From Chlamydiales bacterium (lineage in GTDB: Bacteria; Chlamydiota; Chlamydiia; Chlamydiales; JAAKFR01), in the NCBI GenBank assembly GCA_041395025.1, contig JAWLBH010000001.1, positions 1 through 32,000 of the forward strand: 32,000 nt of DNA, written 5' to 3'. The notes under the pieces were generated by a model, which was not told where the DNA came from, ran no database searches, and was given only the letters and a program-made list of their open reading frames with translations. Made by a program: the position numbers and the translations under genes. Below, in pieces: positions 9,207 to 28,394 of this stretch. How positions within the stretch are numbered: the first letter of the stretch is position 1; the number at the start of each line of letters is the position of its first letter.

Positions 9207-11909
9207 ATGTCTTTTTCACATTCTTTTGATTATATGCATCTTACTAATATTCAATTTATTGAAAAGCTTTATATGCAATTTTTATCTGATCCTAATAGGA
9301 TTGATGATTCTTGGCAGTATTTTTTTAGAGGGATGGAGTTTGGAATCAACCAGGTCATTCGAAAAGAACCCAAAGAGGCTATATCAGATCTACGTATTTA
9401 CCATCTAATCTATACTTACCGTACCTATGGATATTTGCAAGCCACTTGTAATCCTATCGCTTTAGACCATCAAAAAAAAATTGAACCACTGCTTTTATCT
9501 TCTTTAGGATTTGATAAAAAAGATTTAGATCAAAAATTTCCTACTTATGGATTAATGAAGGAACCGAAAGCTCCTTTATCAGCAATTCTTCATCTTTTAG
9601 AAGAAACGTATTGTGGAGAGATTGGAATTGATTATATGAGACCGAATCAACCAAAACTTCAATCTTGGATTCAAAATAAGATCGAAACGCAGAGGATGAA
9701 ACCGAATTTTTCCCTCAATGAAAAGCATACAATATTTGAATACTTGACTAAGGCAGAGTTGTTTGAGGTTTTTTTACACACGAAGTATGTTGGACAAAAA
9801 AGATTTTCTTTAGAAGGAGGGGAAACTCTGATTCCGATGTTAGTCTACCTTATTGAGAAAGGAGGAGAGAGTGGAATAGAGGAGTTTGTGATTGGAATGG
9901 CACATAGAGGAAGATTAAATGTACTCTGTAATCTACTTAAGAAATCTTATTCTACAATATTTAGTGAATTTCAAGACGGTATTCATCCTATCGAATCTGT
10001 AGGAGATGTTAAATACCATCAGGGATATGAATCGACTTTCTCTACTCTCTCTGGGAAGGATGTGCATCTTAGTTTAACTCCTAATCCTAGTCATCTTGAG
10101 TCAGTGAATCCAGTGGTAGAAGGAGAGGTCTATGCTAAACAACTTCAGCGTGGTGATCATAAGCAAACGAAAGTTGTTCCTATTTTGATTCATGGAGATG
10201 CAGCTATTGCAGGTCAGGGGGTGGTCTATGAAACGATGCAAATGCATTCTATTCAAGGCTATTCAACAGGTGGCACAATTCATATTATTCTCAATAACCA
10301 AATTGGGTTTACTACACTATCACATGAATATCGTTCAAGTCACTATAGCACAGATATTGCTCATGCATTTGGGTTTCCCATATTTCATCTTAATGCAGAA
10401 GACCCAGAAGGTTGTCTTTATGTTGCAGAACTCGCTTTACAGATTCGTCAGGAATTTCATATTGATGTGTTACTCGAACTCAATTGCTACAGAAAATATG
10501 GACATAATGAAAGTGATGAACCCCTATTTACTCAACCTCTTGAATACACTTTGATAAAAAAGAAACAGTCAATAAGAGAAATCTATAGAGATAGGCTATT
10601 CAATCAGAATAAATTAGAGAGAAAAATAGCTCTTAACATTGAAAAAAACATGAAGGAGATTTTTGACCTTAACTTAGAACAAGTCAAGCTCTTAAACCAT
10701 CTACCTGAACCACCATCTGATAAAAAATCTGATGAGATCGAGATTTTTGAATCTCTAACTACGGCAATTCCATCAATTTTATTAAAAGAGATCGCGAAAA
10801 AATTTACAATTGTCCCAGAAGGACTGGAAATTCATAGCAAGTTAAGAAAACTGATTCAACATCGTCAAGAGGTGATAGAAAAAGAACTAGAGGTTGATTG
10901 GGCTATGGGAGAACATTTAGCTTTTGCCACCCTTTTATGGGAAGGGATTCATGTCCGCTTATCAGGTCAAGATAGCCAAAGAGGCACTTTTACCCAGCGT
11001 CATGCTGTTTGGGTCGATCAAAAAACAGGCAATCGTTATTTTCCTTTATCTCATCTTAAACAGGAACAAGGACTTTTTAGAGTCTATAACTCCTCTCTGT
11101 CTGAATTTGGAGTCTTAGGATTTGAATTTGGGTATAGCTTAGCCTATCCTAGTGCTCTTGTCCTATGGGAAGCACAATTTGGAGATTTTGCCAATGGGGG
11201 ACAGGTCATTTTCGATCAATATCTTGCAAGCTCTGAAAAAAAATGGCTTAGAGCTTCTGGGTTGGTTGTCCTGCTACCACATGGATATGAAGGACAAGGA
11301 GCGGAACACTCTTCTTCTCGCATTGAGCGTTTTTTACAACTAGCGGCTCAATCAAATATGCAAATTGTCTATCCAACAACTCCTGCTCAATATTTTCATC
11401 TTTTAAGGCGTCAGGTTAAGCGCAAGAGACGGATTCCTTTGATCATATTCACACCAAAAGGATTATTAAGATCTCCTGGGTGTAAGAGTCCTTTTGAAGA
11501 TTTTTCAAAAAAAACATTTCAGGAAATCCTCGATGATCCAACAACTCCTATTGAAGCAGAGCGATTAATCTTATGTTGTGGACGGATCTACTATGACCTA
11601 ATTGAGGCAAGAAGGCATCAGCAGAAAAAGACTGCAATTATTCGTCTTGAACAGCTTTATCCTATCCACCTTGAAATGATGAAAAAGCTGATAAACGAGT
11701 ACAAACATATTAAAGAATACTATTGGGTACAAGAAGAGCCTTTCAATATGGGAGCCTACAGATATATCTTGCCTATTTTGCAGCAAGTCTTGCCTAAAAC
11801 AGCTTCTATAAAATATGTAGGAAGAAAAGAAAGTGCTGTGACTGCTACAGGTTCTTATAGACAACACTTATATGAACAGGATCAAATCATGAAAGAGGCA
11901 TTTGGTTGA
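9207..11909 (+). CDS. sucA: 2-oxoglutarate dehydrogenase E1 component
   Basis: 900 aa. Motifs seen: GMAHRGRLNVL, HGDAAIAGQGVVYETMQM, NNQIGFTT, RKYGHNESDEP, GQDSQRGTFTQRHAV, EAQFGDFANGGQ, LLPHGYEGQGAEHSS. Confidence 0.95.
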   Translation: MSFSHSFDYMHLTNIQFIEKLYMQFLSDPNRIDDSWQYFFRGMEFGINQVIRKEPKEAISDLRIYHLIYTYRTYGYLQATCNPIALDHQKKIEPLLLSSLGFDKKDLDQKFPTYGLMKEPKAPLSAILHLLEETYCGEIGIDYMRPNQPKLQSWIQNKIETQRMKPNFSLNEKHTIFEYLTKAELFEVFLHTKYVGQKRFSLEGGETLIPMLVYLIEKGGESGIEEFVIGMAHRGRLNVLCNLLKKSYSTIFSEFQDGIHPIESVGDVKYHQGYESTFSTLSGKDVHLSLTPNPSHLESVNPVVEGEVYAKQLQRGDHKQTKVVPILIHGDAAIAGQGVVYETMQMHSIQGYSTGGTIHIILNNQIGFTTLSHEYRSSHYSTDIAHAFGFPIFHLNAEDPEGCLYVAELALQIRQEFHIDVLLELNCYRKYGHNESDEPLFTQPLEYTLIKKKQSIREIYRDRLFNQNKLERKIALNIEKNMKEIFDLNLEQVKLLNHLPEPPSDKKSDEIEIFESLTTAIPSILLKEIAKKFTIVPEGLEIHSKLRKLIQHRQEVIEKELEVDWAMGEHLAFATLLWEGIHVRLSGQDSQRGTFTQRHAVWVDQKTGNRYFPLSHLKQEQGLFRVYNSSLSEFGVLGFEFGYSLAYPSALVLWEAQFGDFANGGQVIFDQYLASSEKKWLRASGLVVLLPHGYEGQGAEHSSSRIERFLQLAAQSNMQIVYPTTPAQYFHLLRRQVKRKRRIPLIIFTPKGLLRSPGCKSPFEDFSKKTFQEILDDPTTPIEAERLILCCGRIYYDLIEARRHQQKKTAIIRLEQLYPIHLEMMKKLINEYKHIKEYYWVQEEPFNMGAYRYILPILQQVLPKTASIKYVGRKESAVTATGSYRQHLYEQDQIMKEAFG

Positions 11910-11921
11910 GAGGTGAAAGAT

Positions 11922-13061
11922 ATGAAGGAAGAGATAAAAGTTCCTCCTATGGGAGAGTCGATTAATCAAGTCGAAATTGGGAGATTATTAAAACCCTCTG
12001 GTTCTTTTGTCACTAAGGAAGAAGAAATCATTGAACTTGAAACAGAAAAAGTGAATCAAGTGCTTTATGCTTCTGTTGATGGAAGAGTGGATTGGGAGGT
12101 AAAAGAGGGAGATACTGTGAGAATTGGAGATCTCCTTGGATACATTAATTATGAAGAAAATAGCCTCGATCTTTCGAAGAAAAACTGTAGAAATAAAGAT
12201 ATAGAAAGTACTTTGTCATCGAAAGATGAATCAATTCCACCTTCCTCTTTAGGTCAAGGAGAAAGGCATATGCAAGAAGAATTTATTGCAAATGTGACAC
12301 AAGATCCAAAAACAGAAGCCAAAGAAGTGAGGATAGATCATAAGAATAGTAAGGAAATCCGTCGAGATATGAGCAAAATCCGTAGAACCATTGCTGAGCG
12401 CCTTGTAGAGGCCCTCCATAGCACGGCGATGCTCACCACCTTTAACGAAGTCAATATGAGTGCTATTATTGATTTACGTGCCAAATATAAAGAGCTTTTT
12501 TTGAAAAAGCATGGAGTAAAAATTGGATTTCTCTCTTTTTTTATCAAAGCTGTTGTTGAAGCGCTTAAAATATATCCTGATTTGAATAGTTATATTGATG
12601 GCAATGAGATTGTTCAAAGACGATATTTTAATATTGGAGTGGCGGTGAGCACTGAGCAAGGATTATTTGTTCCTGTTTTAAAAGAATGTGATCGACTCTC
12701 ATTTCCACAGATTGAGCAAAAAATAGATTGCTATGCGAAAAAAGCACGAGAAGGAAAACTTTCAATAGAAGATCTATCAAAAGGAGGATTTACTATTACG
12801 AATGGGGGAGTCTATGGATCTCTCTTCTCCACACCGATTCTTAATCCTCCACAGGTCGGGATTTTAGGAATGCATGCCATTCAACATCGTCCTATTGCGA
12901 TGAATGGCAAAATCATGATTCAACCGATGATGTACTTAGCTTTGAGTTATGACCATCGATTGATCGATGGGAAAGAGGCTATTATGTTTTTAATGCAAGT
13001 GAAAGAGATTTTAGAAGATCCTTCACGTTTACTTTTGATTGAGACAGATGAAAAAATTTGA
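11922..13061 (+). CDS. sucB: Dihydrolipoamide succinyltransferase, E2 of 2-oxoglutarate dehydrogenase
   Basis: One lipoyl domain (ELETEKV lipoyl-lysine motif) and a C-terminal acyltransferase domain with [12 protein letters not shown]. The ORF track starts at GTG 11913. The ATG at 11922 has a GAGAGG RBS 8 nt upstream, so I prefer it. Confidence 0.9.
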
Positions 13062-14418
13062 TTTGATTGTCGTTGGGGCAGGTCCCGGAGGCTATGTAGC
13101 TGCCATTCGAGCCGCTCAACGTGGCTTAAAAGTGGCTTGTGTAGAAAAACATGCTCTTGGTGGAACTTGTCTTAATGTAGGATGTATTCCTTCTAAAGCC
13201 CTTCTTCATTCTACAGAATATTATGATAAAATTCTTTCGGAAGGTAAAGAACATGGAATTGAAATTCAAGGTCTTAAAATCAATCTTGAGACTATGATGA
13301 AGCGTAAAGAAAAGATTGTGGCTAATCTAATTCATGGAATTCACTTTCTTTTTAAAAAATATCAAGTGGATCAGTTGATTGGAAAAGCGAGTTTATTATC
13401 TCCAAATTCTCTTTCTGTCAATGGTCAATCTTATTCAAGTCAACATATTCTCTTAGCCACGGGATCAGAACCGATCCCCATGGACTCTCTACCTTTTGAT
13501 CAAAGACATATTTTCTCTTCCACAGATTTACTCAGTTTTTCTCATATCCCTAAAAAACTGTTAATTGTTGGAGGGGGGATCATTGGATTAGAGCTTGGTT
13601 CAATTTATCAACGTATGGGTACAGAAATAGAGGTGGTTGAACTCTTCGATCGTCTAACTCCTTTTTTTGACTATGAAATCTCTGAGATATTGTTAAAAAT
13701 GTTCAGTAAAAGAGGAATGGTATTTCATTTTAAAGAAAAAGTGATTAGAGGAAATATCGAAGGAAATACTGTTGAACTGTTACTTGAATCTAATAAGCGG
13801 TTAAAAGGAGAGGGTGTCTTATTCGCTATTGGAAGACGCCCTTATACAAAGGGCCTTGGATTAGAAAAAGTAGGCATTCAAACTGATCCTAAAGGAAGGA
13901 TTCCTGTAGATGGATCATTTCGCACCTCTATCCCTACCATTTATGCGATAGGAGATCTCATCAATGGACCTATGCTTGCTCATAAGGCTTCAGAAGAGGG
14001 AATGGCCGTGGTAGATCTTATCTGTGGAGATAAGGTGAAGATCGACTATATGACCATTCCTAATATCATGTATACATGGCCAGAAGTTGCTTCTGTGGGA
14101 ATGACAGAAGAGGCTGCGCGACAATCAGGACTCTCTCTAAGAATCGGTAAAATACCTTTTCAGATGATTCCAAGAGCACGTTGTAGTGGAGATACTGAAG
14201 GGATAGTCAAATTAATTGGAGAGAAAAAAAACGATCGACTCATCGGGATGCAGATCATGGGACCCAATGCCTCTGAGATGATTCATGAGGGAGTGATCGC
14301 CATCAAAAAGGAAATGACGTTATTAGAAATTGCACGAATTTCACATGCCCATCCCACATGCAGTGAAGCAATCAAAGAAGCTGCTATGCTAGCTCATCAC
14401 CAAGCGATTCATCTCTAA
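13048..14418 (+). CDS. lpdA: Dihydrolipoyl dehydrogenase (E3)
   Basis: Contains [13 protein letters not shown] (FAD-binding site), [13 protein letters not shown] (redox disulfide) and the C-terminal HAHPT. The ORF track starts at TTG 13039. The ATG at 13048 gives the typical [13 protein letters not shown]-terminus. Overlaps the end of sucB. Confidence 0.9.
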
Positions 14419-14477: not shown

Positions 14478-17400
14478 TTACTGCTTCTTCTTTATTTCAC
14501 CTTTCTTTATTTCACTTTTGCGCTTGTCTAATTTCGCTGAAAGGTCTAAAACATGTTTTAGAAATTCTACACTTTTTTGATGACACTTAGCCTCATCTTC
14601 GGTAAAAGCTTTAAAGGCAACCTTATGGTTAGGCATATCTCCCTCCACAAGTTTACGATATTTTGGAGTTTTTGCTTTTATCTTGATAGTTTGTTGAAGA
14701 TCATTGTTAATGAATGGTAGAAATGGAAACTGATTTAAAAATTCGATATCCTTATAGAGGATCCCTTTTCCTTTCAAATCCCTAAATATCTCTACATTGT
14801 ATTCCATAATAGTTTTTGAAATCTCGATTGATTTTTCTAAGTCTCGTATTTGTTTTTCTAATACTAGGATATTTTCTTGAGTTTGTCTTATCTCCTCTTG
14901 TGACTTTTTTACTTCAGCAATTAGATGAAGAGTATTTTCAAGATTTTGTGCGGCTCCAGGAAGCGTTGAGTTAAATAAATTGTTACAATCATCTACCGTG
15001 CAGCTTGATGCCGTATCTAAATTATTGCCATGAACTATATGAAGGATCATCCCATATATGAAATCTAGTAATTTGGGCTCTGGATAGTTCTCAATCGGCA
15101 TATTGTTATCGAGCTGTTTTTTAGCATTTGTCAGAATACTCCTCATGTCCTCTTTACTTACCAGAATCTTATTTTTAAATTCATCTGGGGTCTTACTCTG
15201 CCATTTTCTCGGATTACCTAGTTTTGAAAAATTTATCTCTAAATTATTCGCTAGTGTAGGGTCTGCTGCAAAGTTTGCTAGGTCGCGATTGATCTCTTGA
15301 AATACCGTTATTGCATACCGTATCATATCTCGATATGCCGTCATATAGTTCGATTGGCTTGCTAGATCTAAATTCGATATATCCATCTGAAGGTTCCATT
15401 TATACCGTGCTGTTAAGTCCGAGTCATCCATTGAAGTTCGTCGTCTATTCAAACCTTCGATCATCCTTTCTGATAAACTAAAACTCTTTGTGTTTCGTAT
15501 CCGGTTAATCATCCCGCGCTGGATCTCACTTATCTTTGTCTCCTGATTAGTTAATTCGGTGTGCATAGTATGAAGTTCCTGCTGTTTCCCTAGTAAATGG
15601 GCATTTATTGATAATGCTTTCGAACTATCTACCCATGGGTATGGGAAATCATCATCTTCAATAGCTTGGATAGCTTGATTAATGTAGTAATTATTCCTAG
15701 GAAATGAGAGGTTGCTATCCAGACCATCACCCCCCGATATCTTGATCTGAACATTTTCACCTATAGATGCTATAGAAATCTCATATTGATAATCTTTTGT
15801 CACTCCAAAATGTTCATTAGGTGTAAAAAGATTCAGTTGAGGCTCTGGCGGTACGATTTCGTAAGTTAGAGTAGGCAATAGGTCCTCTGGGAGAACGTTA
15901 CTAATTTCATAACAGTTGCGTAATGCTGCTGTATTTGGGAATTGACTTGGTTCTGGAATCTGATCTGCATTCGCAAGAGCAAGACCTCGGATTTGTCCCC
16001 ATGTGCTATCAAGGATATCGTCAGGTTTATTCTTTCGAATATCGATGAGTTGTTCTGGTTTTGCTTTTTTTGCAATTTCAGCTTCTTCAAATGTGATTAA
16101 GCAATACCTCCTGACCTCGTCCTGATCTGGATCCGGATTAGAATGAAAAATAAAATGAGAATATGCTCCATCATTTACGACTCCTTGGCTTAAATAAAAC
16201 AACGGTGGTTTATACAACTGTTGATTGCCATTTCTGAAAAGACGAGCAATCATATGTTTTAATTCCTTGCATTCAGATAGTCGTCTCCAGTTCTTCTCAT
16301 CAAGGAAAGAATCATCTACTTCTACAGACTTTTCTTTAGCCATTTGAAGATCTAAACGAGGGAGACCTGGTTGTGAGTGCACTTCAGCCTGAGCTAGTGT
16401 TTCTGTGCATGCTTCTGCTTCCGCTTCTGCTTGTGCTTGCGCTTCTACTTGTGCTTGCGCCTGTGCTTGGACTTGAGAATTAGTATCTAAGATCTCTACC
16501 TTTCTATTTTCAGGATAAACTTTTTTAAATTGATTAATAGAGTGAGCTATTCTATTTGTTGAATAGTGATTTATATATTCATTTTCTTCTTCAAATTCTA
16601 CATCTTTGTTTTCCTCTCTATAATAACGCCTTTTTAATGCTCGATAAGCATTGAATATTTCCTGTATGTTCAATGTAATCTCTTCTTCTATTGTTTCTAC
16701 AAACTCGTCACGAGACATACTTTTCATCGCTTGGCCATATTTACCGTAGAGTTCTTTCTGAGATTCATCGATCAAAGATTGTAATTTATTTCTCCTTTTT
16801 AGAAACATTTTATAGGAATCTCGTATATGCGTATTTCCTACACCATTTTGACTAAAAAAAAGTTTCAGTATTCTACTTTCTAAGTAACCTGCAGCTGTTT
16901 TAAAATGAGCATTCATCTCTTTTTTGAAAATGATTAGAGATTGTTCAATCTCTATATCTTTCTCACAAAGACAGAGATAGCGAGCAATTTCCTTAGCCTC
17001 GATTTTAAAGGGAGGTTTTATACTCCTTATCCTATTCAATTTTTTATTTAATTTCTCGTGTTCGGTCTGTAAGGCAATTATTGGTTCTGATACTTCTTTC
17101 TTCTGGTTTCTTCGTCTATCGTCCAATTTCTTTTGTAGACACGTTAGTTGTTTATTTGTTTCATTTATAGAAATAAGTACTTCATTTTCTAAACGCTTCT
17201 TGACAATGTTACGAAATTGCTCTGTTCCAGCAAAAGAAAATCTTTGTTCAGAGGCTGGATTCACAATATTACGTAAACGTAAAATCGTTTGTTTTGCATC
17301 ACTATTCGTCACATTTTCATCAATTGTGACTAAGCAATGAATCCCCATAGCCTGTTTCACATCTGAACCACGACAGTTTTTTTGTTTATAAAAAGTAAAG

Positions 17401-20400
17401 TACTTTTTACTACTAAGGGCTGCAATTTCCATATCTGTTGTGCAAGGAATCGCTAGCTTGTTTGGGCCACGATAAAGACGCTTGATATTATCTTTTCCGT
17501 AGTAAATGATTCCTTCAATACCATTAAATATCTCTCTTTTGTTTTGGATTTGTTGCCATAATTCCTGAACAACCGTCTCTGGAGTTCCATCACGACTCTT
17601 ACAAATCCCTGCGCTATCTGCAATTGCACGTGTTGAAGACTCACAACAATTAAGCAAATGTTCAATGGTGCTTTTTAGATAATTATTAGAATCTGGAGGT
17701 GGAAACCATTTAACTTCTTGGTTATTTTCTCTTCCCATGATATCAAAGGTCAATAATCCATCAGCAGCAGGATCAGGTGCTTGTTTTTCAAAGTATGAGG
17801 AAGTTCCACCTACTGTCCCTGAACATCCTACGATAAGATCATTGGGAGAGCCTTGTTCGTAACGATTACTTTTTGCACATCCCTGATCAGCTCGTACTTG
17901 TTTGGCTACAACTAATGCTCCAAAAAATTGGCGAAACTTTAGAGTAGGCTGAGCCATAAATTCATTATAAAATTTTTCTTTAGATCGATTTAAATCATCT
18001 ATATCTAGATTTTTAGAGAGTAATTTTAGTTCTTTAATAACTTTATCCGCTGTATCTTTTCCTAAATAGTTTTCACAAAATGGCAATGCCGCATTTTGTT
18101 GGATTTGGGAAATTAAAAAATCTAAATGAGGATTAATAGCAAAACTGGTTTCCAGAGAATTGTAGTAGAGCAAGGTAGTAATAGCAGCGACTTCAGTATT
18201 ATCAAAAATAGAATTTCCTTTAGGATTATTTGCCCCTTCATAAGGAACAGAAATAAGCAAAGAGGCTTTCGAGTCAGCATCATACGAATACTCTCTTGCA
18301 CCTGTTGCCGGATTAATCACAAATCGTGCTCCAAATTCTGTATTAGCTTTTTTGGTAGTAATTATGGAGAGCATATAGCTATCAAGAAGCAACATACGTA
18401 TTAAAAAGATGGTTATATTCCAACGATCATCATGACTAACACAGTCTTTATCCCAATTAAAGTGCTCTGGACTGTATTTTACCTTTGGGTCTATTAGATA
18501 ATCAATTAGGCCAGTCTTGAAATCAGGCAGTGAATTGGGATTCAGCATATGATCAATTAGCTCGCTCGCTCGTTCCTTTTTCTTAGTCCAATCTTTATTC
18601 TTATTTTTTTGAATATAGTCTGTTAGTTCTGCAAGAGGTATAACGATGGCTTCGCGAATAGGGACTTTTTCACCTCGGGTAAAATTGACTTCACGAGATC
18701 TAATATCTTGAGTATCATCCAGCTCATCAAAAATAGTATAAGAGGATAAACTACGAATTTTCGATAACCATGTTTTTGCCTCAAAACGCAAATTGTCTGC
18801 ATCCGAGTATTCATCATTAAGTAATATCTTTGAAAACTCAATTTCTTGGGCTTCTAAAGCACACCGAGTTTCTGGAGGTTGAATCAGAACATCTCCATTA
18901 TTACGCACTTTTTCGTAAAAAGCATATCGGGTTTTTAAATCTTCTAGAATCCAGTGAAAAGATTTTTTGGGGTTTTTAGCATCAATTTGATAGCGTAAAA
19001 ATTCTGTATCTTTGATCACATGACTTCCAAGAATTCCTTGGATTTGATGGTTGAAAGATTTAGCATTATCTTCAAGGACAGCACGAGGAACCACATAACG
19101 TACAAGGTGTCGTTCTTCTTTAGGTAAATTACGTTCTTTTGCAACCTGTGCAATTGATAAAAGGGGAAGTAGGGCAGTTTTACCAAAACCCATACGCGCT
19201 TGAATCGCATCGATGCCTTCTGGATCTTTTTTTCCTAACATCAAAGCACGGAAAATACGTGCTTGCATCATATTACAGCGATTTCCGTACTGACCTTCAA
19301 AAACAAGAAATGTACGTTGAATAATTTGTTCTAAGAGTTTTTCACCTTCCAAGTTCTCTTCAGAAAGAAGATCGACAGAATAATTTCTCTTTGTCTGTAA
19401 TAGCTGAAACTTATTCCGCTCTCCTTTTAAAGGAGCTGCAAAAATATTTTTTACGTGTTGACATTCCGTTTTATAGATTAGGTAGTGTGTCAACGTCTGT
19501 TTTAGGCGAGACTGGGTACCGGGTTTTTCTCCTTCTTGAACTGAAAATTTAGAAAAGTCATTCGTAATATAAGCGTATTTAAGATCTCCCATCGATTGTC
19601 CAGGACGCAACTCTGCTTTTAAAACTGCTTTTGCTTCAAGATAGTGTTGCAAATCTTTCTTATACTTCTCTTTTAATTGAGCCGAAATCTCTTTTTCTGC
19701 ACCTTTTTTAAATGCAAATTCAAAACCTGACTGCGCAGCTCGAGATAAGAAAACATGAAGTCTTTGAATAGCTTGGGTCGTTTCTTTCTCTGTTTTTAGA
19801 CATTGAACAAGAAGAGATCTTAATTCATCTCGCGGAAAATCTTTTCCTAGCCGATCCAAAGAGGCAACACGATAGTAATTGTCGACTGGATCTCGAGTAG
19901 GTTGAATAATATTTAACTCCACTAATTTATTAAAAATCGTTCTAATATCTTCTTTTTTAAGCCCATAAAGCGCTTCACCTTGGCTATTAGTTTGATAATC
20001 TGCGAGCAATGCATCGCAATTAAAGACCCCAATACTTTCAAGATAATACCCTCTGACTTGATCATAGATAATTTTTCTAGATTCTTGTATAAGAGATTTT
20101 TGTGATTGTGAAATCTCTTTTTTAAGGTTTTTTAGTTTTCCTTCAATTTTTTCAGTAGAAAAAATCTGTTCTAGAGGTGTCTTTGTAGCTAGAGCTACTA
20201 TTGTTTTGATAGCCTCAGATTTAGAAAGAGAAGCAGCTGGGGCTTCTTCCTCTATCTCTTGGTCGCTAAATACAACTGGGGCTTCTTCCTCTATTTCTTT
20301 GTTGTTGAATACTTCATTGATCCGTACGAAAAAACCCTGCAAGATTTTTAGGTTATTTTGATCCTGAGAGGCTTGGTCGGACTGTGGGCTTGGTTTAGAA

Positions 20401-23400
20401 TTATTTGTCAAAAAAAACAATATTGTCGATTGATATAACTCCTCTAATTCTTTCCAAATAGGATATGATTTATCGAGAATATGAAGGCATTTTTCTATCT
20501 GCTCAATACTGGTGTCGAGTGGTTGAATAAACTTTTCTACTAATTGTGCTGGATGAGAGGAAGTTTTGCATAGCTGATGGTTATAGTGTTGGTATTCAAT
20601 TAAATGAAGATAGATCTTAAACTGAGTATATTCATTCAGCATGTTTTTACATTCTTTCGAACTCAGTTGATGATTCTTTAAATATTGATCTCCTTCATAA
20701 AAATCGTTGAGTTTCCCTAAGGCTTGATCGTAACCTCCCAGATAATCCAACATTTCTTGTTCTGCTTGAACATTAATCTCTGCGCTATTTTTCTGTTTTT
20801 GATTGTTCTCTATCATAGAAGCCACGTGATCACTATTAGATGCTTTCTGCCTTGCATCTTCTATTGTCTCGTCAATTAACTTTTGTATCTCTTCAATGAG
20901 GGTTAATTGAGTTTGCGTTAAATTGGCTTGAGTATAATGACGACTTAGCTCTTTTATCATGTAATGCACGCTGATTGGATCTTTTTTTTCGATCTCTTTC
21001 AGAGTAATCAGTAGAGCACCTGTGAAGTCTTCTACAAGAGGACTAGAATTTGCCCCTGCTTTATAGAAGACGATTTCTGTAGAATGGTCACATTGAACAG
21101 AAAGGGATTTTTCAATTTCTTGATATTGTTCAAGAGTCTTAGCAGCGGATGATAAATTATTTCTGAAAATATATCTGTCAATCTCCGTTCGATAATAGCT
21201 TAATTTGCCCATGAGATCTTTATAAGAGTATTCTGCCTTTGTAACTATCTTTTCTGGAGCGTCATCATACGGCTCTATATTGTGTTTAACTTCCTCATAC
21301 GCTCGATCCGGAAGAGGGACTAAAAATGTGGTTTCTTGAAGATCCATAAGCTCTTTTTTTAATCGGTGAATTTCTTCTCTTCTTTTTTTCGCATGATAAT
21401 GACTTAAATGGGATCCATCTTTATTTTGCGCTACTTTGTCAAGGTATTCTGCTTTTTTAATTTCTAGTTCTTTTTGTTTGAATTGGGTTTTAGAAATAGG
21501 GTTTTTCAACATCAAAGGTAGGTTTGATCTCTCTACCCCTACTTCTAACACTTTTGTTGTCATACCTGGGCGCTCACATGACCAATGGTCATTGATTTTA
21601 TCAAGATAAATAGTTAACCCAGCAGCAGGAATTAGATATTTATCTTTATTAGAAGAGACAAGAATTTCTTCAGGAGAAAAGTTTTCTAATAGCCTTTCTT
21701 CAAGGTTAGCCTCTTGCCGATCGATTTCGTCTAATCGGTGTGAACAATCCGGTCCCAATAATCCATTTTCTGGATCTATAGGCTGGAATTGCTCTGTAAA
21801 ACCTTCTATATAGATCTCATGTGGTAACCCATTTTGAAATTTCGTCTTTGCAATCAAATTTCCATCTTTTCCATATCCAAAAAGAGTCCTTTCATTATCC
21901 ATCCAAAAATGCTGAATCTTCATGCGATAAAGAAGAGAAATAGGTGCAGTGATCTCTTCCCTAGGAACAAATTGAAGAGTTTTATTATGAGAATTCTTGT
22001 TAGAAAAGCTAGTACTCATATCTTTGTAAACAAGAGGAGTGCGATCTTCTGTTTCTCTAACTATGATTAGAGGATCACCTTTTGAACTAAAATACACATA
22101 ACTTTTTGTAGCTTGATCCCATCGATAAGGAAAGTATTCTATTCCTAAAGTCCGCACGGTTGGATGATTTTGCAGATTAGGAGGGAGGTTCAAAGTTTGT
22201 TCGCCATTTTTATAAACGATCCCTGATAAAATATCTAAAGTGAGGTCATGGCCTAGATCTTTAAACCGAGGATCATCGGTATTGTTATATTGAATATCCC
22301 CTCTTACTCCATTAAAGACCCCATTTTTTAAAAGTCTTTGAGAGGCTGTGTCTGCCTTGTTTTTTTCTTCTTCTAGAAAATTAGCGATCTCTTTTGAATC
22401 GATATTTTTTAGGGTTGCTATGAGTATTTTATCAGATGCGACTAGGCTAGCCTCTGCTTCATCGCATGCACTTTTTAAAAATCCATGAATCTCCTCTTTA
22501 CCTTCAAAGTAGTTAAATTTTATGTGTTGATAAAGCATTTTTGAAACAAGAAAGTCTAGAGCAGTTTGTTTTTTGTTAGAATTCTTAAGAATTTCATTAG
22601 TATTGAATATAATACTGCGTGCATGACCCATAAGAAGGCGATGGATTTCATTGCCTTCAATCAGAGATTGATTAAATCGTAAGATCGCTTTTCTTGTGTC
22701 GAAATTCGGATTCCATTTCTGTAAAATATCTTGATAGAAAATCTTTAGAGGAGGAGCTAAAGTTTCTGGATTACATTCATCATCGTTATTCTCGATTGCT
22801 TCTATCTTATTAGATAGATATTCTAGAGTCTGATCTTCATTCCAAAGATATGCGTGGTTCAAAATTCGAGCAATTTGCTCTCTTTGTTGATAATGATCGG
22901 CTTTAAGATTTACAAGAGGATAGTCTATTAAATCAAATGCAAGTTTATCAACTCCTTGAGCCATAAGAGCATCTAATTTTTGCCTAGTTTCAGGGGTCTC
23001 AGGTAATTTATGGTTATTTGTATCTAGCTTAAATGAGGCTCTTATTAATTCTCCATCCAATCCCTCTAATTCAATAGGGGAGTCTTGTAGTGCTTCGCTT
23101 AAATTTTTTAAATCTTCATAAAATGTTCTAGTGTTATCGTCTGCTTGGTCCAGATCTAAATCGTTATTTTTGATTGTATTAGCCAATCTGTTAAATAGGA
23201 GTTTTTGATCATCTAAATTTAGATTAGAGTGTCTACAGACCTGCTTTAGACGATACGCTGCTTCTTCTGAGCATCGGTTAGGTAAGCTAAAGTATTTGAT
23301 CATCAACCAGTATTTCAAAAAGGTAGCACGTTCTTCATTATGCATCTCTTGTAGATACAGAGTTTTTTGATTGTCTATTGTTTTAGAATATAGATTTAAG

Positions 23401-26171
23401 AATATTTGCTTAATATCATCTGGCGGAGATGTGTTGCTCTTCCAAAATATTTCAAGTACTTCTTGAGTATCTGCAAGGAATATTGATCTCAAAGAAGAAG
23501 GGTAGCCATGTATGTTTGCATATGCATCTAGTTGTTGAATCCATCCGACTTTGTATTCTAATGAATCTAAATCATTATCGCAATAATCTGATAGATCTTT
23601 GCGAATTTGAGTAAGATCTTCGATAAGATTTACAATTTTTCTGTTCTCTACCTTTTCCATCTGAATAAATTCACTGTCAATCTTATAAACTGTTTTGCCT
23701 AACCAGTTGGTACCGTGAGGAGCTAAAACCTCTTGCTGAAAGGAGTCTGCGTGAATTTTATTGGCGGCATCTTTCTGTTTTCTAAGCTGTTCGCCTATAC
23801 TCTTTCGATAATAGCTTAAAACGGTTTCTCTTTTCCGCTCATCTTTCTTGATAGCTTTTTCTTTTTTATCACTTGGATTAGGTAGTTCTTTTAGAATGGG
23901 TATTTCTGTTCGATGATACCGATTGAAGGCAAGACGAGCTTTTTTTAAGCCCTGTTCTCTGATTTCATTATTCCCTTTAGGAAGAGAGAGATTTTTGAAT
24001 GAAATCGAGACAGTATTAATTTGGTAGCCTGTTTTTATTTGAAACCAACTTCTAAAGAAATCAGCCATTTTTTCTTGACGTATTTTTTTGTCCGAAATGC
24101 CTTGAAGAGCCTCTTCTTGATCTCTTGGAAGATGTGTGATCCAAATCTGTACAATTGTTTGATGCCAAGTAGATAAAGCATTACTAACATCGAGGAGCTC
24201 TGCTAGATTCTTAAGATCTAGCTTTGGCCTCTCTTTTTCTTTTTTATTCATTGAATGAGTGTTGTCATTAAAAGGAAGGCTAATTATCCCTTTTTCTATC
24301 GGATCAAGGGCGATAAATTTTTCGATCTTTGAAAGTTGATTAGAAGAAAGATGATCAGCAAACTGCTTTGCAGCTTTTTGAATTTCGCTTAGGACACCTC
24401 GATCACCGATTGATAGATCCTGATTGATTGGTAGATTAATAGAAAAACTATCTTTTTTTGCTAGTTGCAGAGGAGTTTGACACTGAGGCTTTGTCTCTAA
24501 AGCCATATAAAAGACTTTTTCTGCGTACCGATGTTTATGTTTTTCTTTTCGTTCTTCATATGTAGTCAGTTGATGAAACGTTTCGAAATCGCCTACTACT
24601 AAATATCCGAGGCTATCTTCGATAGCTTTATATTCTGATATGTTACGGTCTATTTTTTCTCGATAATCTGAATCAATCGATTGCGGATTTTGAGATAAGA
24701 TAGACAGTTCAGCCTGGTGGATATTACTCATTAGGTTTTTAAAGCATGTGATCAATTCATCATCTGATGAGTCGTCAAAATCTGGCAAATCGCTTGCTAT
24801 TTTTATGAGTTTTTCAGATAATTGCTTATCTACTTTCTTATCTAGCTTATGCTTATCTACTTTCTTATCTAGCTTACCTAAAAGATCATACAATCTACCA
24901 ATTAAGAGTTTTCCTATTTCCTCTCCACCTTTTTCCCAAATGTCTATGAATTGTTCTTTTATTGCCTCTTCGCTCTTTTGTATCTTTTTAAAATTGAACC
25001 TTGCTTTTTTATAATCATCTAAATGTTCTTGCCAACTGTTTATTTGAAGCATAAGCAAGGTTTTGTCAAAACCTTCTTTGGCCTCATCGAATTTTTCTTT
25101 AGCTTTAAGGTGTTTCCATTTTATAAATTCTTTTTCTTTCTTGCCGTAAGAGAAATACCTCTCTTCTTCATCTAATTTCTTATTAATAAACAACTCAATA
25201 TCTTCATTATTAGGACATCCCTTGTAAAAAGACTGCAATTGCGCATATTTAGACAAAACCTCTAGCAAGGTTTTCTCTTGTTTGTGTTGCTCTTCTAAAA
25301 CGCGTAATTTAACATTAGAAGACTCTTTCCGCAGCTGGTTATGTAGTTTTTTATCAGATATTTGGCTCAAATAAGAGTCTATCTCATCTTTTAAAAAAAG
25401 ATGAGGGTAGATAAAAAGACAAGCAGGGTTGCTCCTAATCTCTTCGACGCTCAACGCCTCTGCTGTTTCATCTCTTGTTTCAAAAGCTTTTAAGAAACTC
25501 TCCACTAGATAACAAAAAGCAAGGGGGATGGGGTTTTTGATTTTTCTGGGTTTGATCTTCTGGTCTTGTTTTCCCTTGTCGTCTTCTATAAATCTGCTCA
25601 CCGACTGTTTAAGTTTGGTTTTTATTGTTGATAATTCATTTTTAGGGAGATCGTGATAAGCAATATGCTGGATCGATTCTAATATCTTTTGAATCTCAGG
25701 ATCTTGGTTTTCTTTCCAAGGGTGAATGAGTAATTCATTCATGAGTAAGATGACTTCCTCATGTGTATGCAATTTCGGTTCACTTCCTAAAATCATTTCT
25801 GAAGAAAACGTCGATGTTTGGAGAGCATTTTTACATGTTTGAATGAGATGTTGGTTTTGAGCTGCTTTGGAAGGAAAAAAATAACGTTTCACAGAGATGG
25901 GCATGTCTACGAATAATACCTTCACGTTACGTCCAGTGAGTCTACCTACACGAGCGGTCTGTTTACCTATAGCTTTTATACCTAAAAAAATGTTGTGTGC
26001 TACCTTTTCAGTTAGGGAAACTGTTTTTCTAAGTATTTGATATCCAATACGCGATACTAGACGCCTTGCTCTGTTTTCAACGAGATGTGTGCTCGCATCT
26101 AGTTCACGCAAAAAATTGTCTACACGAGGATGCCTAGATGAATGTTGAGCTGAGTGAAAAGAAGATTCCAT
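14478..26171 (-). CDS. Giant (~3900 aa) protein of unknown function with an internal SF2/SecA-like P-loop NTPase core; candidate secreted effector
   Basis: A single uninterrupted reading frame. The maximal ORF reaches a TTG at 26261. The first ATG (26171, MESSFHSAQ...) is the more likely start, because the 30 codons upstream are A/T homopolymer-like. Motifs: QARMGFGKTALLPLLS (19176-19193), IFDELDDTQD (18714-18728), VGCSGTVGG (17814-17825), NCRGSDV (17361-17375). I saw no obvious signal peptide or TM segment at the N-terminus. Confidence 0.85.
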   Translation of the reverse strand: MESSFHSAQHSSRHPRVDNFLRELDASTHLVENRARRLVSRIGYQILRKTVSLTEKVAHNIFLGIKAIGKQTARVGRLTGRNVKVLFVDMPISVKRYFFPSKAAQNQHLIQTCKNALQTSTFSSEMILGSEPKLHTHEEVILLMNELLIHPWKENQDPEIQKILESIQHIAYHDLPKNELSTIKTKLKQSVSRFIEDDKGKQDQKIKPRKIKNPIPLAFCYLVESFLKAFETRDETAEALSVEEIRSNPACLFIYPHLFLKDEIDSYLSQISDKKLHNQLRKESSNVKLRVLEEQHKQEKTLLEVLSKYAQLQSFYKGCPNNEDIELFINKKLDEEERYFSYGKKEKEFIKWKHLKAKEKFDEAKEGFDKTLLMLQINSWQEHLDDYKKARFNFKKIQKSEEAIKEQFIDIWEKGGEEIGKLLIGRLYDLLGKLDKKVDKHKLDKKVDKQLSEKLIKIASDLPDFDDSSDDELITCFKNLMSNIHQAELSILSQNPQSIDSDYREKIDRNISEYKAIEDSLGYLVVGDFETFHQLTTYEERKEKHKHRYAEKVFYMALETKPQCQTPLQLAKKDSFSINLPINQDLSIGDRGVLSEIQKAAKQFADHLSSNQLSKIEKFIALDPIEKGIISLPFNDNTHSMNKKEKERPKLDLKNLAELLDVSNALSTWHQTIVQIWITHLPRDQEEALQGISDKKIRQEKMADFFRSWFQIKTGYQINTVSISFKNLSLPKGNNEIREQGLKKARLAFNRYHRTEIPILKELPNPSDKKEKAIKKDERKRETVLSYYRKSIGEQLRKQKDAANKIHADSFQQEVLAPHGTNWLGKTVYKIDSEFIQMEKVENRKIVNLIEDLTQIRKDLSDYCDNDLDSLEYKVGWIQQLDAYANIHGYPSSLRSIFLADTQEVLEIFWKSNTSPPDDIKQIFLNLYSKTIDNQKTLYLQEMHNEERATFLKYWLMIKYFSLPNRCSEEAAYRLKQVCRHSNLNLDDQKLLFNRLANTIKNNDLDLDQADDNTRTFYEDLKNLSEALQDSPIELEGLDGELIRASFKLDTNNHKLPETPETRQKLDALMAQGVDKLAFDLIDYPLVNLKADHYQQREQIARILNHAYLWNEDQTLEYLSNKIEAIENNDDECNPETLAPPLKIFYQDILQKWNPNFDTRKAILRFNQSLIEGNEIHRLLMGHARSIIFNTNEILKNSNKKQTALDFLVSKMLYQHIKFNYFEGKEEIHGFLKSACDEAEASLVASDKILIATLKNIDSKEIANFLEEEKNKADTASQRLLKNGVFNGVRGDIQYNNTDDPRFKDLGHDLTLDILSGIVYKNGEQTLNLPPNLQNHPTVRTLGIEYFPYRWDQATKSYVYFSSKGDPLIIVRETEDRTPLVYKDMSTSFSNKNSHNKTLQFVPREEITAPISLLYRMKIQHFWMDNERTLFGYGKDGNLIAKTKFQNGLPHEIYIEGFTEQFQPIDPENGLLGPDCSHRLDEIDRQEANLEERLLENFSPEEILVSSNKDKYLIPAAGLTIYLDKINDHWSCERPGMTTKVLEVGVERSNLPLMLKNPISKTQFKQKELEIKKAEYLDKVAQNKDGSHLSHYHAKKRREEIHRLKKELMDLQETTFLVPLPDRAYEEVKHNIEPYDDAPEKIVTKAEYSYKDLMGKLSYYRTEIDRYIFRNNLSSAAKTLEQYQEIEKSLSVQCDHSTEIVFYKAGANSSPLVEDFTGALLITLKEIEKKDPISVHYMIKELSRHYTQANLTQTQLTLIEEIQKLIDETIEDARQKASNSDHVASMIENNQKQKNSAEINVQAEQEMLDYLGGYDQALGKLNDFYEGDQYLKNHQLSSKECKNMLNEYTQFKIYLHLIEYQHYNHQLCKTSSHPAQLVEKFIQPLDTSIEQIEKCLHILDKSYPIWKELEELYQSTILFFLTNNSKPSPQSDQASQDQNNLKILQGFFVRINEVFNNKEIEEEAPVVFSDQEIEEEAPAASLSKSEAIKTIVALATKTPLEQIFSTEKIEGKLKNLKKEISQSQKSLIQESRKIIYDQVRGYYLESIGVFNCDALLADYQTNSQGEALYGLKKEDIRTIFNKLVELNIIQPTRDPVDNYYRVASLDRLGKDFPRDELRSLLVQCLKTEKETTQAIQRLHVFLSRAAQSGFEFAFKKGAEKEISAQLKEKYKKDLQHYLEAKAVLKAELRPGQSMGDLKYAYITNDFSKFSVQEGEKPGTQSRLKQTLTHYLIYKTECQHVKNIFAAPLKGERNKFQLLQTKRNYSVDLLSEENLEGEKLLEQIIQRTFLVFEGQYGNRCNMMQARIFRALMLGKKDPEGIDAIQARMGFGKTALLPLLSIAQVAKERNLPKEERHLVRYVVPRAVLEDNAKSFNHQIQGILGSHVIKDTEFLRYQIDAKNPKKSFHWILEDLKTRYAFYEKVRNNGDVLIQPPETRCALEAQEIEFSKILLNDEYSDADNLRFEAKTWLSKIRSLSSYTIFDELDDTQDIRSREVNFTRGEKVPIREAIVIPLAELTDYIQKNKNKDWTKKKERASELIDHMLNPNSLPDFKTGLIDYLIDPKVKYSPEHFNWDKDCVSHDDRWNITIFLIRMLLLDSYMLSIITTKKANTEFGARFVINPATGAREYSYDADSKASLLISVPYEGANNPKGNSIFDNTEVAAITTLLYYNSLETSFAINPHLDFLISQIQQNAALPFCENYLGKDTADKVIKELKLLSKNLDIDDLNRSKEKFYNEFMAQPTLKFRQFFGALVVAKQVRADQGCAKSNRYEQGSPNDLIVGCSGTVGGTSSYFEKQAPDPAADGLLTFDIMGRENNQEVKWFPPPDSNNYLKSTIEHLLNCCESSTRAIADSAGICKSRDGTPETVVQELWQQIQNKREIFNGIEGIIYYGKDNIKRLYRGPNKLAIPCTTDMEIAALSSKKYFTFYKQKNCRGSDVKQAMGIHCLVTIDENVTNSDAKQTILRLRNIVNPASEQRFSFAGTEQFRNIVKKRLENEVLISINETNKQLTCLQKKLDDRRRNQKKEVSEPIIALQTEHEKLNKKLNRIRSIKPPFKIEAKEIARYLCLCEKDIEIEQSLIIFKKEMNAHFKTAAGYLESRILKLFFSQNGVGNTHIRDSYKMFLKRRNKLQSLIDESQKELYGKYGQAMKSMSRDEFVETIEEEITLNIQEIFNAYRALKRRYYREENKDVEFEEENEYINHYSTNRIAHSINQFKKVYPENRKVEILDTNSQVQAQAQAQVEAQAQAEAEAEACTETLAQAEVHSQPGLPRLDLQMAKEKSVEVDDSFLDEKNWRRLSECKELKHMIARLFRNGNQQLYKPPLFYLSQGVVNDGAYSHFIFHSNPDPDQDEVRRYCLITFEEAEIAKKAKPEQLIDIRKNKPDDILDSTWGQIRGLALANADQIPEPSQFPNTAALRNCYEISNVLPEDLLPTLTYEIVPPEPQLNLFTPNEHFGVTKDYQYEISIASIGENVQIKISGGDGLDSNLSFPRNNYYINQAIQAIEDDDFPYPWVDSSKALSINAHLLGKQQELHTMHTELTNQETKISEIQRGMINRIRNTKSFSLSERMIEGLNRRRTSMDDSDLTARYKWNLQMDISNLDLASQSNYMTAYRDMIRYAITVFQEINRDLANFAADPTLANNLEINFSKLGNPRKWQSKTPDEFKNKILVSKEDMRSILTNAKKQLDNNMPIENYPEPKLLDFIYGMILHIVHGNNLDTASSCTVDDCNNLFNSTLPGAAQNLENTLHLIAEVKKSQEEIRQTQENILVLEKQIRDLEKSIEISKTIMEYNVEIFRDLKGKGILYKDIEFLNQFPFLPFINNDLQQTIKIKAKTPKYRKLVEGDMPNHKVAFKAFTEDEAKCHQKSVEFLKHVLDLSAKLDKRKSEIKKGEIKKKQ
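16408..16474 (-). repeat. Degenerate GCTTCT/GCTTGT hexanucleotide tract encoding a (Gln/Glu-Ala)n linker inside the giant gene
   Basis: The plus strand reads catgcttctgcttccgcttctgcttgtgcttgcgcttctacttgtgcttgcgcctgtgcttggacttg. It translates on the minus strand to QVQAQAQAQVEAQAQAEAEAEA. Confidence 0.85.
20237..20297 (-). repeat. Two copies of a 22 bp motif spaced 39 bp apart, encoding a duplicated EIEEEAP segment in the giant gene
   Basis: ctggggcttcttcctctatctc (20237-20258) and ctggggcttcttcctctatttc (20276-20297). The protein reads EIEEEAPVVFSDQEIEEEAPAAS. Confidence 0.85.
24825..24878 (-). repeat. 27 bp x 2 tandem duplication in the giant gene (HKLDKKVDK / HKLDKKVDK)
   Basis: cttatctactttcttatctagcttatg (24825-24851) is followed by cttatctactttcttatctagcttacc (24852-24878). 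Confidence 0.9.
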
Positions 26172-26345
26172 GCTAAAAATACCTAATTCTTTATTCTTTT
26201 TTTTTAAAAATAATGCGTTAATATTGTTAAGTTTAAAGGAAAAAGTCTTTTTTAAACACAAAAAAATCTATAAAAAAAATTTATTAAGAGATGGAAGCAA
26301 AAAAGAAATAAAATAAGCGCGAAAAATTAATCAAATCTTAACAAA

Positions 26346-27611: not shown

Positions 27612-28280
27612 ATGAATCAAGAAAAAACAGAACCACCAACAAAACGTAAGCTGAAAAAAGCACGGATGAAAGGGGAGATCGCTAAGTCTTCTTTTTTTGC
27701 AGGCGCCCTTATATTTATGGGAGCAATACTTTGCATCTGGGGATCAGCTACCCTTTTAGGAAGTCGATTTATCACAAGTATGCAAAATGGTTTAAGGAAC
27801 TTTGAGATGGAAGGGGCTTTTGCAAAGGTCATGGGTCCTTTAATTTACCCAGTGATTCTCATCATGGTAGGGATTTTCCTTCTGTCGATTATCGCCCATT
27901 TACTTCAAACAGGTTGGGTTTGGTCTATAGAAACTCTTTACCCTAGGTGGCATAAACCAAAGAGAGAATATCGATTCGTAATGCCAATCTTATACATGAT
28001 TCTTATGATAGGGGGGACCTATTTTGCGATCAAAAGGGGGCTAAATTTGGAGATTTTTTTCATTTCAGTTAAAGAGCAAGGAAAATTTTTTTTTAAAAAC
28101 ATCATGAGATTTTCATCTATAGTGGGAATTTTCTCGATCCTTCTAGGGCTTTGTGATTTTTTCTATCAAAAATCACGCTATTACAAACGGATGTATATGA
28201 CTCCTCAGGAAAAAAATGAGGAACTAAGAGAAGCAGAAGGGAATCCTCATTTAAAAGGGCTTTTAAGAAAACGTCACTAA
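27612..28280 (+). CDS. flhB: FlhB/SctU-family export-gate protein, membrane domain only (no C-terminal autocleavage domain)
   Basis: 222 aa. The N-terminus EKTEPPTKRKLKKARMKGEIAKSS matches the FlhB/SctU start. Hydrophobic segments follow. The protein ends at ...PQEKNEELREAEGNPHLKGLLRKRH, which is the linker (compare Salmonella FlhB ...QSEGDPHVKGRIRQ) that normally precedes the NPTH domain. Confidence 0.7.
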   Translation: MNQEKTEPPTKRKLKKARMKGEIAKSSFFAGALIFMGAILCIWGSATLLGSRFITSMQNGLRNFEMEGAFAKVMGPLIYPVILIMVGIFLLSIIAHLLQTGWVWSIETLYPRWHKPKREYRFVMPILYMILMIGGTYFAIKRGLNLEIFFISVKEQGKFFFKNIMRFSSIVGIFSILLGLCDFFYQKSRYYKRMYMTPQEKNEELREAEGNPHLKGLLRKRH

Positions 28281-28394
28281 AATAGTTTTATGAAAAGATT
28301 TTTTACTAAAAATCTACAAGGGGATAAAACTTTTAATTTTTATTAATTATAATTGATTGCGTAAAAAATCAAGGTTTCTTACACATAAAAAATC

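Follow-up and report, generated by a model that had tools for sequence, protein, structure and literature searches.

The locus analyzed here raises the question of which kind of enzyme is embedded in a giant protein that is deposited as hypothetical, and to which family it belongs. The window, i.e., the whole stretch of DNA that was analyzed, comprises 32,000 nucleotides of contig JAWLBH010000001.1 of a Chlamydiales bacterium (assembly GCA_041395025.1), and its minus strand carries an uninterrupted open reading frame (ORF) that, if counted from a TTG, extends over 3,927 codons (14478..26261). From Met31 on, the ORF is 100% identical to the GenBank entry MEZ5314602.1, a hypothetical protein from a 'Chlamydiales bacterium' metagenome-assembled genome (MAG), which starts with the ATG at 26171 (Met31) and has 3,897 amino acids. 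The initial annotation had proposed a two-lobe NTPase core of the superfamily 2 (SF2) or SecA type at 17292-19274, with a resemblance to the eukaryotic DUF3638/DUF3645 module. Structure prediction supports a two-lobe SF2-type NTPase core at residues ~2251-3030 (17172..19511; all features of the giant gene are on the minus strand), and, judged from profile comparisons, this module is homologous to DUF3638/DUF3645 and represents a divergent bacterial branch. The protein is, thus, a new and divergent representative, from a bacterium, of a family that is known but uncharacterized. The module is wider than the range proposed before; its extent was taken from the hhalign alignment to the eukaryotic module.

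The kinship with DUF3638/DUF3645 was clearly visible in profile-profile comparison, but less so in Pfam scores. A profile of 42 bacterial modules was aligned by hhalign to a profile of 17 fungal modules with a probability of 99.8% and an E-value of 1.9e-28. The alignment covered 682 columns (positions 7-786 of 791), and every motif was collinear. Column-shuffled fungal profiles (n = 5) reached scores of only 16-25 (E 0.09-0.75), compared to 244 for the real profile. A hidden Markov model (HMM) of the full fungal module matched 42 of 42 family modules and none of five E. coli decoys (SecA, RapA, UvrB, RecQ, and RhlE). In addition, the profiles of the family, of the eukaryotes, and of a chlamydial 'bridge' group (see below) were compared by hhalign with the same five E. 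coli proteins, and the best result was an E-value of 0.018 with a probability of 2.5%. As neither the shuffled nor the E. coli SF2 controls gave a match, the similarity is family-specific and not a generic P-loop likeness. The bridge group was linked to the bacterial family with an E-value of 3.8e-50 and to the fungi with 3.1e-50. The identity between the query family and the fungal modules is only 17-18%. With 25.9 bits against the fungal module HMM, the window protein is among the most divergent members, and the Legionella-type subfamily is nearer to the fungal profile (70-100 bits).

In the Pfam scan of the whole protein DUF3638 (PF12340) was the sole notable match (23.3 bits, E 4.5e-5). 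With the excised module it reached 25.9 bits (E 7.5e-6), and residues 2333-2536 were aligned to model positions 26-201 of 225. Both scores are below the gathering cut-off of 31 bits. DUF3645 (PF12359), which is expected as a 33-residue motif 'LAVPyrAKD.Ps.RaEF.HPDV' about 290 residues past Walker A, was not reported in the scan of the whole protein. On an excised piece of 71 amino acids it was the sole Pfam match, a weak one (E 0.22, 11.3 bits, cut-off 25), at residues 2669-2693 (LISVPYEGANNPKGNSIFDNTEV), and hhalign aligned the same stretch to the DUF3645 motif. When 15 family members were scanned at E <= 1, DUF3638 was found in 14 (best E 3.1e-12), DUF3645 in seven (best E 0.026), and, weakly, DEAD in six (best E 5.7e-4). 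Helicase_C was matched neither in the module nor in the 15 members, and the gathering threshold of DEAD/ResIII was not reached. The automated Pfam annotation already labels some bacterial relatives as DUF3638.

The four motifs that had been read in the giant ORF were present where they had been placed, and they were invariant in 42 homologues. The order of motifs is that of SF2 proteins, i.e., I (GxGKT), II (DExD), III (S/T-x-T), V, and VI (Q...R..R). Before the P-loop lies the element RCNMMQARIF (19251..19280), which aligns to the eukaryotic 'iR.vQ' and can tentatively be read as a Q motif; its residues R2328, Q2333, and F2337 are invariant. Motif I (Walker A) is QARMGFGKTALLP (19164..19202), with GFGKT at residues 2358-2362 (19176-19190). 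It aligns to the eukaryotic QLNMGEGKSSVIvP, and the hhalign block pairs bacterial QARMGFGKT with fungal QLNMGEGKS. The motif Ia-like strand LVRYVVPRAVL (19074..19106) aligns to the eukaryotic LVRVvVlKpl (block LVRYVVP/LVRVvV), and a further block pairs VLIQPPE with GILlQPE. Motif II (Walker B), YTIFDELDDTQD (18705..18740), was assigned by motif reading and alignment and contains DELDD at residues 2512-2516 (18714-18728). Behind it, the conserved stretch VNFTRG (18672-18689) is matched by eLVYTvG in the eukaryotic module; the corresponding block is bacterial FDELD..VNyT.G and fungal DESDE..LVYTvG. The sequence contexts VRYVVPRAVL and VLIQPPETRCALE, on which the proposed family assignment had been based, were likewise confirmed in the translation.

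The long spacing between motifs II and III, which had also been noticed, is real, and it turned out to be a conserved insertion domain of ~255 residues (residues ~2540-2795; 17877..18644), delimited by the secondary structure of the AlphaFold2 model and the alignment. The domain is predicted to be mainly helical with a small beta unit. It holds the DUF3645-equivalent motif, LISVPYEGANNPKGNSIFDNTEVAAITTLLYY (18162..18257), which aligns to the eukaryotic LAVPyrAKDvPs.RaEF.HPDV; in the hhalign block bacterial LLIAVPYegaNTPKg.S.FDNtEV is paired with fungal LLAVPyrAKDvPs.RaEF.HPDV. Residues P2673, Y2674, and T2696 of this motif are invariant, and P2680 and K2681 are 98% conserved.

Motif III, LIVGCSGTVGGTSSYF (17790..17837), aligns to the eukaryotic TTGFSGTND (block GCSGT/GFSGT), and SGTV occupies residues 2814-2817 (17811-17822). 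Lobe 2 starts with a motif IV-like strand and loop, TRAIADSAGICK (17598..17633), which aligns to the eukaryotic vrVilDVGAQ (block IDaaG.CK/lDVGAQ). Motif V is FTFYKQKNCRGSDVKQ (17352..17399), and it aligns to the eukaryotic VyLDeaHTRGTDLkLP (block tRGsDIkQ/HTRGTDLkLP). It includes CRGSD (residues 2963-2967, 17361-17375), which had been taken for an arginine finger; as it aligns with the eukaryotic HTRGTD, it had to be reassigned to motif V. The probable arginine fingers are part of motif VI, NSDAKQTILRLRN (17268..17306), which aligns to the eukaryotic tKDrLvQ.CMRMRkLG (block KQAIlR.R/vQ.CMRMRkLG) and contains KQTILRLR at residues 2990-2997. The latter stretch starts at the 3' limit of the range given in the initial annotation (17292, residue 2990) and runs past it, and motif VI is, thus, cut by this limit.

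The eukaryotic DUF3638+DUF3645 giants and the query have a collinear motif set over ~700 residues in common, which comprises Q..MG.GK[ST], LVR.vV, QPE, DE.D...V.[FY]T.G, the patch VPY...P...F..[PT][DE]V, GxSGT, D.[AG]G, RG[ST]D, and Q...R.R. The analysis shows that the Pfam 'domains' DUF3638 and DUF3645 are parts of one SF2-type motor of ~780 residues with a full catalytic motif set. In both groups the module is located about two-thirds along a very large protein. The query differs in its bacterial host and in the absence of DUF6606, which is often present at the N-terminus of the eukaryotic giants (fungal examples).

Conservation was quantified with a MAFFT alignment of 42 family representatives that had been clustered at 50% identity. 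Their mutual identity is just 35-54%, and still G2358-F-G-K-T2362, D2512, E2513, D2515, and S2814-G-T2816 as well as, in lobe 2, R2964, Q2970, K2990, Q2991, R2995, and R2997 are conserved in 42 of 42 sequences. Residues 2231-3030 are the best-conserved stretch of the whole protein, with 40-51% identity to the query per block of 100 residues, compared to 7-28% elsewhere. The invariance in 42 homologues and the location in the most conserved part of the protein indicate that the motifs are real and under selection.

An AlphaFold2 model (m728114e09bda) of residues 2245-3035 was built from a 15-sequence alignment and had a mean predicted local distance difference test score (pLDDT) of 75.9. In the model strands and helices alternate around each motif, the insertion between motifs II and III is largely helical, and two tandem RecA-like alpha/beta lobes are predicted, with catalytic loops of low confidence. 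A Foldseek search against the PDB retrieved MDA5 and RIG-I as top matches (E 4e-4 to 1e-3, probability 0.96-0.99), and DdmD, Dicer-2, SWR1/INO80, SecA, and UvrB followed at lower ranks, all of which are SF2-type two-lobe motors. The proposal of a two-lobe SF2-type core was, thus, corroborated. In a sequence search of the PDB no chain was matched at E <= 10. The closest solved structures belong to RIG-I-like receptors and Dicer helicase domains (9f2l_A, 9f3p_A, 5f9f_E), SF2 ATPases that depend on duplex RNA. Like the query module, they have two RecA-like lobes and an inserted helical domain, but the TM-scores are only 0.18-0.23, the identity is 11-13%, and the RIG-I-like insertion (Hel2i) is situated within lobe 2 and not between motifs II and III.

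The predicted structure was most similar to annotated DUF3638 proteins. The best matches in BFVD were giant-virus proteins annotated as DUF3638 or 'ubiquitinyl hydrolase 1' (E 6e-18 to 2e-12, TMq 0.41-0.50), i.e., proteins of Fadolivirus, Hokovirus (four paralogues), Hyperionvirus, and Harvfovirus. Taking the giant-virus DUF3638 proteins of Klosneuvirinae and Megaviridae together, and including Yasminevirus, the E-values were 6e-18 to 8e-7 over 700-890 columns, with 13-15% identity in the structural alignment; the viral entries are pieces of 900-1,500 residues. These matches are an independent structural confirmation of the family assignment. These viruses infect amoebae and other protists.

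To analyze the distribution of the family, 1.84 billion representative proteins were searched exhaustively with a profile; this yielded 76 relatives, 64 of them with E < 1e-30. The full-length relatives are nearly all giants of 3,300-5,200 residues that carry the module about two-thirds along. Word-indexed homology searches recovered very little, i.e., only two fragments with the module and only three proteins with three 'bridge' modules. A search seeded with P0079, a related metagenomic protein, resulted in 229 proteins. Its named matches include fungi (Rhizoctonia, Grifola, Fusarium, Aspergillus, and Lentinula), and the fungal proteins contain DUF3638 together with DUF3645 and/or an N-terminal DUF6606; several were automatically named 'ubiquitinyl hydrolase 1'.

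A locus scan with one genome per species revealed 46 loci in Chlamydiae, in Legionella/Legionellales, and in MAGs that are labeled less precisely (uncultured bacterium, Gammaproteobacteria, one 'Pseudomonadota'). The Chlamydiae with loci are Waddlia, Simkania, Parachlamydiaceae, and Rhabdochlamydiaceae, often with two to three copies per genome. Two subfamilies were distinguished. The chlamydial-type subfamily has 44-57% identity to the query and is found in Waddlia chondrophila, Simkania negevensis (three copies), Parachlamydiaceae, Rhabdochlamydiaceae, and other chlamydial MAGs. The Legionella-type subfamily has 30-36% identity to the query and comprises proteins of 4,300-5,200 residues. It is present in Legionella brunensis (two copies), L. 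shakespearei, L. lytica, L. pneumophila subsp. fraseri, L. rowbothamii, L. quateirensis, L. norrlandica (three copies), L. saoudiensis, and L. drancourtii, and also in Legionellales MAGs and a few Parachlamydiaceae and Chlamydiales. The paralogous copies are L007, L008, and L033 in Simkania, L037, L042, and L043 in L. norrlandica, and L014 and L019 in L. brunensis. The 'Pseudomonadota bacterium' MAG carries a chlamydial-type copy (L004, JAUPUP010000227.1; 49% identity to the query, identical to P0018), and this contig may be mis-binned or its label too loose.

The initial annotation had regarded the module as eukaryote-like and as a candidate for a transfer between kingdoms. That it is shared with eukaryotes was verified: it occurs in eukaryotes, in giant viruses that infect protists, and in Chlamydiae as well as Legionella/Legionellales, two bacterial lineages that are not related to each other and of which the cultured members multiply in amoebae. 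It is, however, not purely eukaryotic. The low-scoring end of the exhaustive search (P0073-P0076) is made up of bona fide DUF3638 proteins with 65-78 bits. The chlamydial bridge giants (P0073-P0078, e.g., NGX57995.1) are stand-alone proteins of 3,000-3,400 amino acids with the same module as the query, and they have ~20% identity to the query family. They are equally distant from the query family and from the fungal proteins, as seen in the E-values given above. One of them, P0074 (3,169 amino acids, 78 bits on DUF3638; locus L047, 7028-16537), is flanked by a TLC ATP/ADP translocase and a fused SecDF on one side and a 7TMR-HD protein on the other side, and the adjoining TLC and fused SecDF genes mark it as chlamydial. 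Since chlamydia-type contigs encode bona fide members, DUF3638 also exists outside the eukaryotes, and the acquisition of a eukaryote-like module by transfer stays a hypothesis; the conclusion of a eukaryotic origin would be premature. Neighbour-joining recovered the family of the query and the fungi as one monophyletic group each (100% bootstrap), and the chlamydial bridge sequences branched between them without robust support for their monophyly (44%). As the tree has no root and nearly all of its eukaryotic sequences are fungal, the direction of a transfer cannot be read from it. An exchange between the kingdoms, in either direction, is plausible.

What might the motor do? The explanation that we consider probable is that the module is a catalytically competent SF2-type polymer motor of the DUF3638/DUF3645 lineage, which is part of a soluble giant protein and acts on the host after secretion. 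The full set of invariant catalytic motifs argues for an active ATPase, and the fold together with the conserved insertion argues for a motor that grips a polymer. ATP would be bound between the lobes via the Q-like element, K2361 of Walker A, and D2512/E2513 of Walker B, hydrolysis would be completed by the lobe-2 arginines R2995 and R2997 of motif VI, and closure of the lobes would be linked to the state of the nucleotide by motifs III and V. The insertion of ~255 residues would present the invariant DUF3645 patch 'VPY..N.PK..S.FDN.EV' at the position from which SecA and RIG-I-like enzymes hold their polymer substrates by means of accessory domains. Because of this position the motor most probably acts on a polymer, either a nucleic acid or a polypeptide, which it may grip and move along or remodel.

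The motor is part of a soluble, free-standing scaffold with a length of 3,300-5,200 residues, which is present exclusively in Chlamydiae and Legionella/Legionellales. For the giant protein neither a transmembrane segment nor a signal peptide was predicted. Its gene neighbours are housekeeping genes, none of which is conserved between the genomes that carry family members, and the giant gene is a stand-alone gene without conserved partner genes. Together with the absence of defence matches, the distribution, and the homologues in eukaryotes and viruses, these features make a secreted effector the most economical reading. Such a giant effector could be exported by type III secretion in Chlamydiae and by the Dot/Icm system in Legionella, its target would be material of the host cell, and it may mimic or interfere with the host's own DUF3638/3645 giants. 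The C-termini (last ~30 residues) of the Legionella-type proteins P0033, P0038, P0042, P0048, and P0050 are polar, with many Glu, Ser, Thr, and Pro residues, which we take to be weakly reminiscent of Dot/Icm secretion signals.

Several points weigh against this explanation. A protein of ~450 kDa would be a demanding secretion substrate. The DUF3638 score of the window protein, though significant by E-value, is under the curated Pfam cut-off. The module model has a predicted template modelling score (pTM) of 0.45, and its catalytic loops are of low confidence (model segments 103-109, 270-286, and 571-591 with pLDDT < 50). A literature search yielded no experimental work on any DUF3638/3645 protein, and the function and mechanism of DUF3638 are called undefined in the literature; the substrate is, therefore, a guess. 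Lastly, only the ATPase module is demonstrably common with eukaryotes, and outside of it hhalign did not detect any significant similarity of the bacterial to the eukaryotic giants (E >= 0.005 level), so that 'mimicry' of a whole host protein is unsupported. A weak, collinear, and non-significant hint was seen upstream of the ATPase between residues 1309-1554 of P0003 and the fungal N-terminal residues 1089-1319 (hhalign E 0.0047, probability 7.5%), which could indicate that the shared part extends beyond the motor.

A bolder version goes further than the polymer motor acting on the host, and we think it rather unlikely as a whole. It states that DUF3638/DUF3645 is a distinct SF2 clade that circulates among protists, giant viruses, and intracellular bacteria, and that the bacterial copies are secreted effectors which subvert a host DUF3638 pathway by acting on a host polymer, possibly a polypeptide or a ubiquitin-linked one. 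The idea of such a substrate stems from the SecA-like topology of the insertion and from the automatic naming of eukaryotic and viral relatives as 'ubiquitinyl hydrolase'.

Among the alternatives, a nucleic-acid helicase that acts inside the bacterium, e.g., in genome maintenance, RNA metabolism, or a DdmD/RIG-I-like defence, and has no role in the host, survives best, but we judge it to be improbable. Its attraction is that the best PDB folds are nucleic-acid-dependent SF2 motors (MDA5, RIG-I, DdmD, Dicer-2, Snf2-type, UvrB), and the weak DEAD-box matches in six of 15 members point in the same direction. However, the PADLOC defence models gave no family at E <= 0.1, hhalign against RecQ, UvrB, RapA, and RhlE found nothing, and Pfam recognized no nucleic-acid-binding or nuclease domain elsewhere in the protein. 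The absence of conserved partner genes also speaks against a helicase with an internal role, and a range of Chlamydiae and Legionella/Legionellales with kin in eukaryotes and giant viruses would be odd for a housekeeping or defence helicase.

Quite improbable, in our estimation, is a SecA-like polypeptide translocase or unfoldase, i.e., a paralogous protein-moving motor. The likeness to SecA that had been noted in the initial annotation concerns the architecture. The PPXD of SecA is an insertion between motifs II and III, and the large insertion of the query appears to have the same topological position. The spelling of the SecA motifs also resembles that of the query (GxGKT / DExD / GxSGT / RGxD), and E. 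coli SecA (2fsg_B) was retrieved by Foldseek over 852 columns (E 0.055, probability 0.75) with a TMq of 0.25, the highest of the top 20. It was, however, a mid-ranking match overall and was outranked by RIG-I-like helicases. In addition, 'SecA-like helicase-related domains' are mentioned in passing among the effectors of the amoeba symbiont Amoebophilus (PMC3482391). At the level of sequence the relationship had to be rejected: SecA_DEAD, PPXD, and the SecA wing/scaffold had no Pfam match even at E <= 1-10 in the whole protein, the module, or 15 members, and when the profiles of the family, the bridge group, and the eukaryotes were compared with E. coli SecA by hhalign, the E-values were 0.08-0.18 and the probabilities were below 1% (family profile: E 0.11, 0.6%). 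Moreover, neither a membrane partner nor a SecY-type partner is encoded nearby. As there is no link by sequence or profile, 'SecA-like' is an analogy and not a classification. A degenerate, non-catalytic module that serves only as a scaffold within a large structural protein would fit the Pfam score under the cut-off and the strong divergence of the window protein, but is very improbable, as all catalytic residues (GKT, DE, SGT, RG.D, and the motif VI arginines) are 100% conserved in 42 sequences and no other part of the protein is as constrained as the module.

The DUF3638/DUF3645 family, whose very large proteins are widespread in eukaryotes and giant viruses, has a well-conserved bacterial branch of stand-alone giants in Chlamydiae and Legionella/Legionellales, in addition to the bona fide DUF3638 members of Chlamydiae. 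Legionella species, Waddlia, and Simkania are tractable bacterial entry points to the function of the motor. Modules of eukaryote type are a familiar theme in amoeba-associated bacteria, and the family adds a large and previously unremarked candidate to the genes that are shared in the amoeba 'melting pot'. If secreted, the giants would rank with the largest known effectors and give a lead to the host pathway of their eukaryotic homologues. In view of its size, its conservation, its occurrence in eukaryotes as well as in giant viruses and bacteria, and its uncharacterized function, the family is a reasonable target.

Some further features of the family and of the locus were recorded. A possible kinship of DUF3638 giants with herpesvirus-tegument-like (VTD) deubiquitinases was not borne out; PMC9741609 names neither an ATPase nor DUF3638. 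A second conserved block of the giant protein comprises residues 1035-1650 (21312-23159), which are kept in the chlamydial-type and Legionella-type subfamilies and include, e.g., the invariant R1132, G1347, and Y1350. The AlphaFold2 model of this block (pLDDT 78.6) predicts helical repeats and, behind them, a beta-rich domain; the model had no significant fold match in the PDB, and the block had no Pfam match. The poorly conserved C-terminal third contains the low-complexity run QVQAQAQAQVEAQAQAEAEAEA at residues ~3263-3285 (~16407-16475). At the other end of the gene, the TTG of the mechanically defined ORF lies 30 codons upstream of the deposited ATG (26171-26261), and the stretch directly upstream of the ATG at 26171 is very A/T-rich.

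The G+C content of the window is uniform (~35-38%), and the giant gene is, thus, not conspicuous by its composition. The upstream flank of the giant ORF is formed by sucA, sucB, and lpdA (9207-14418). On the opposite flank genes for Fe-S and ferredoxin proteins are followed by genes for an FlhB-like protein, FlhA, and an SRP54-type GTPase (27612-31165, plus strand), which form a cluster of the flagellar/type III secretion export type in a chlamydial genome. Its FlhB/YscU-family protein is short (222 amino acids) and covers just part of the model, the FlhA/FHIPEP protein has 614 amino acids, and the SRP54-type GTPase occupies the position of FlhF.

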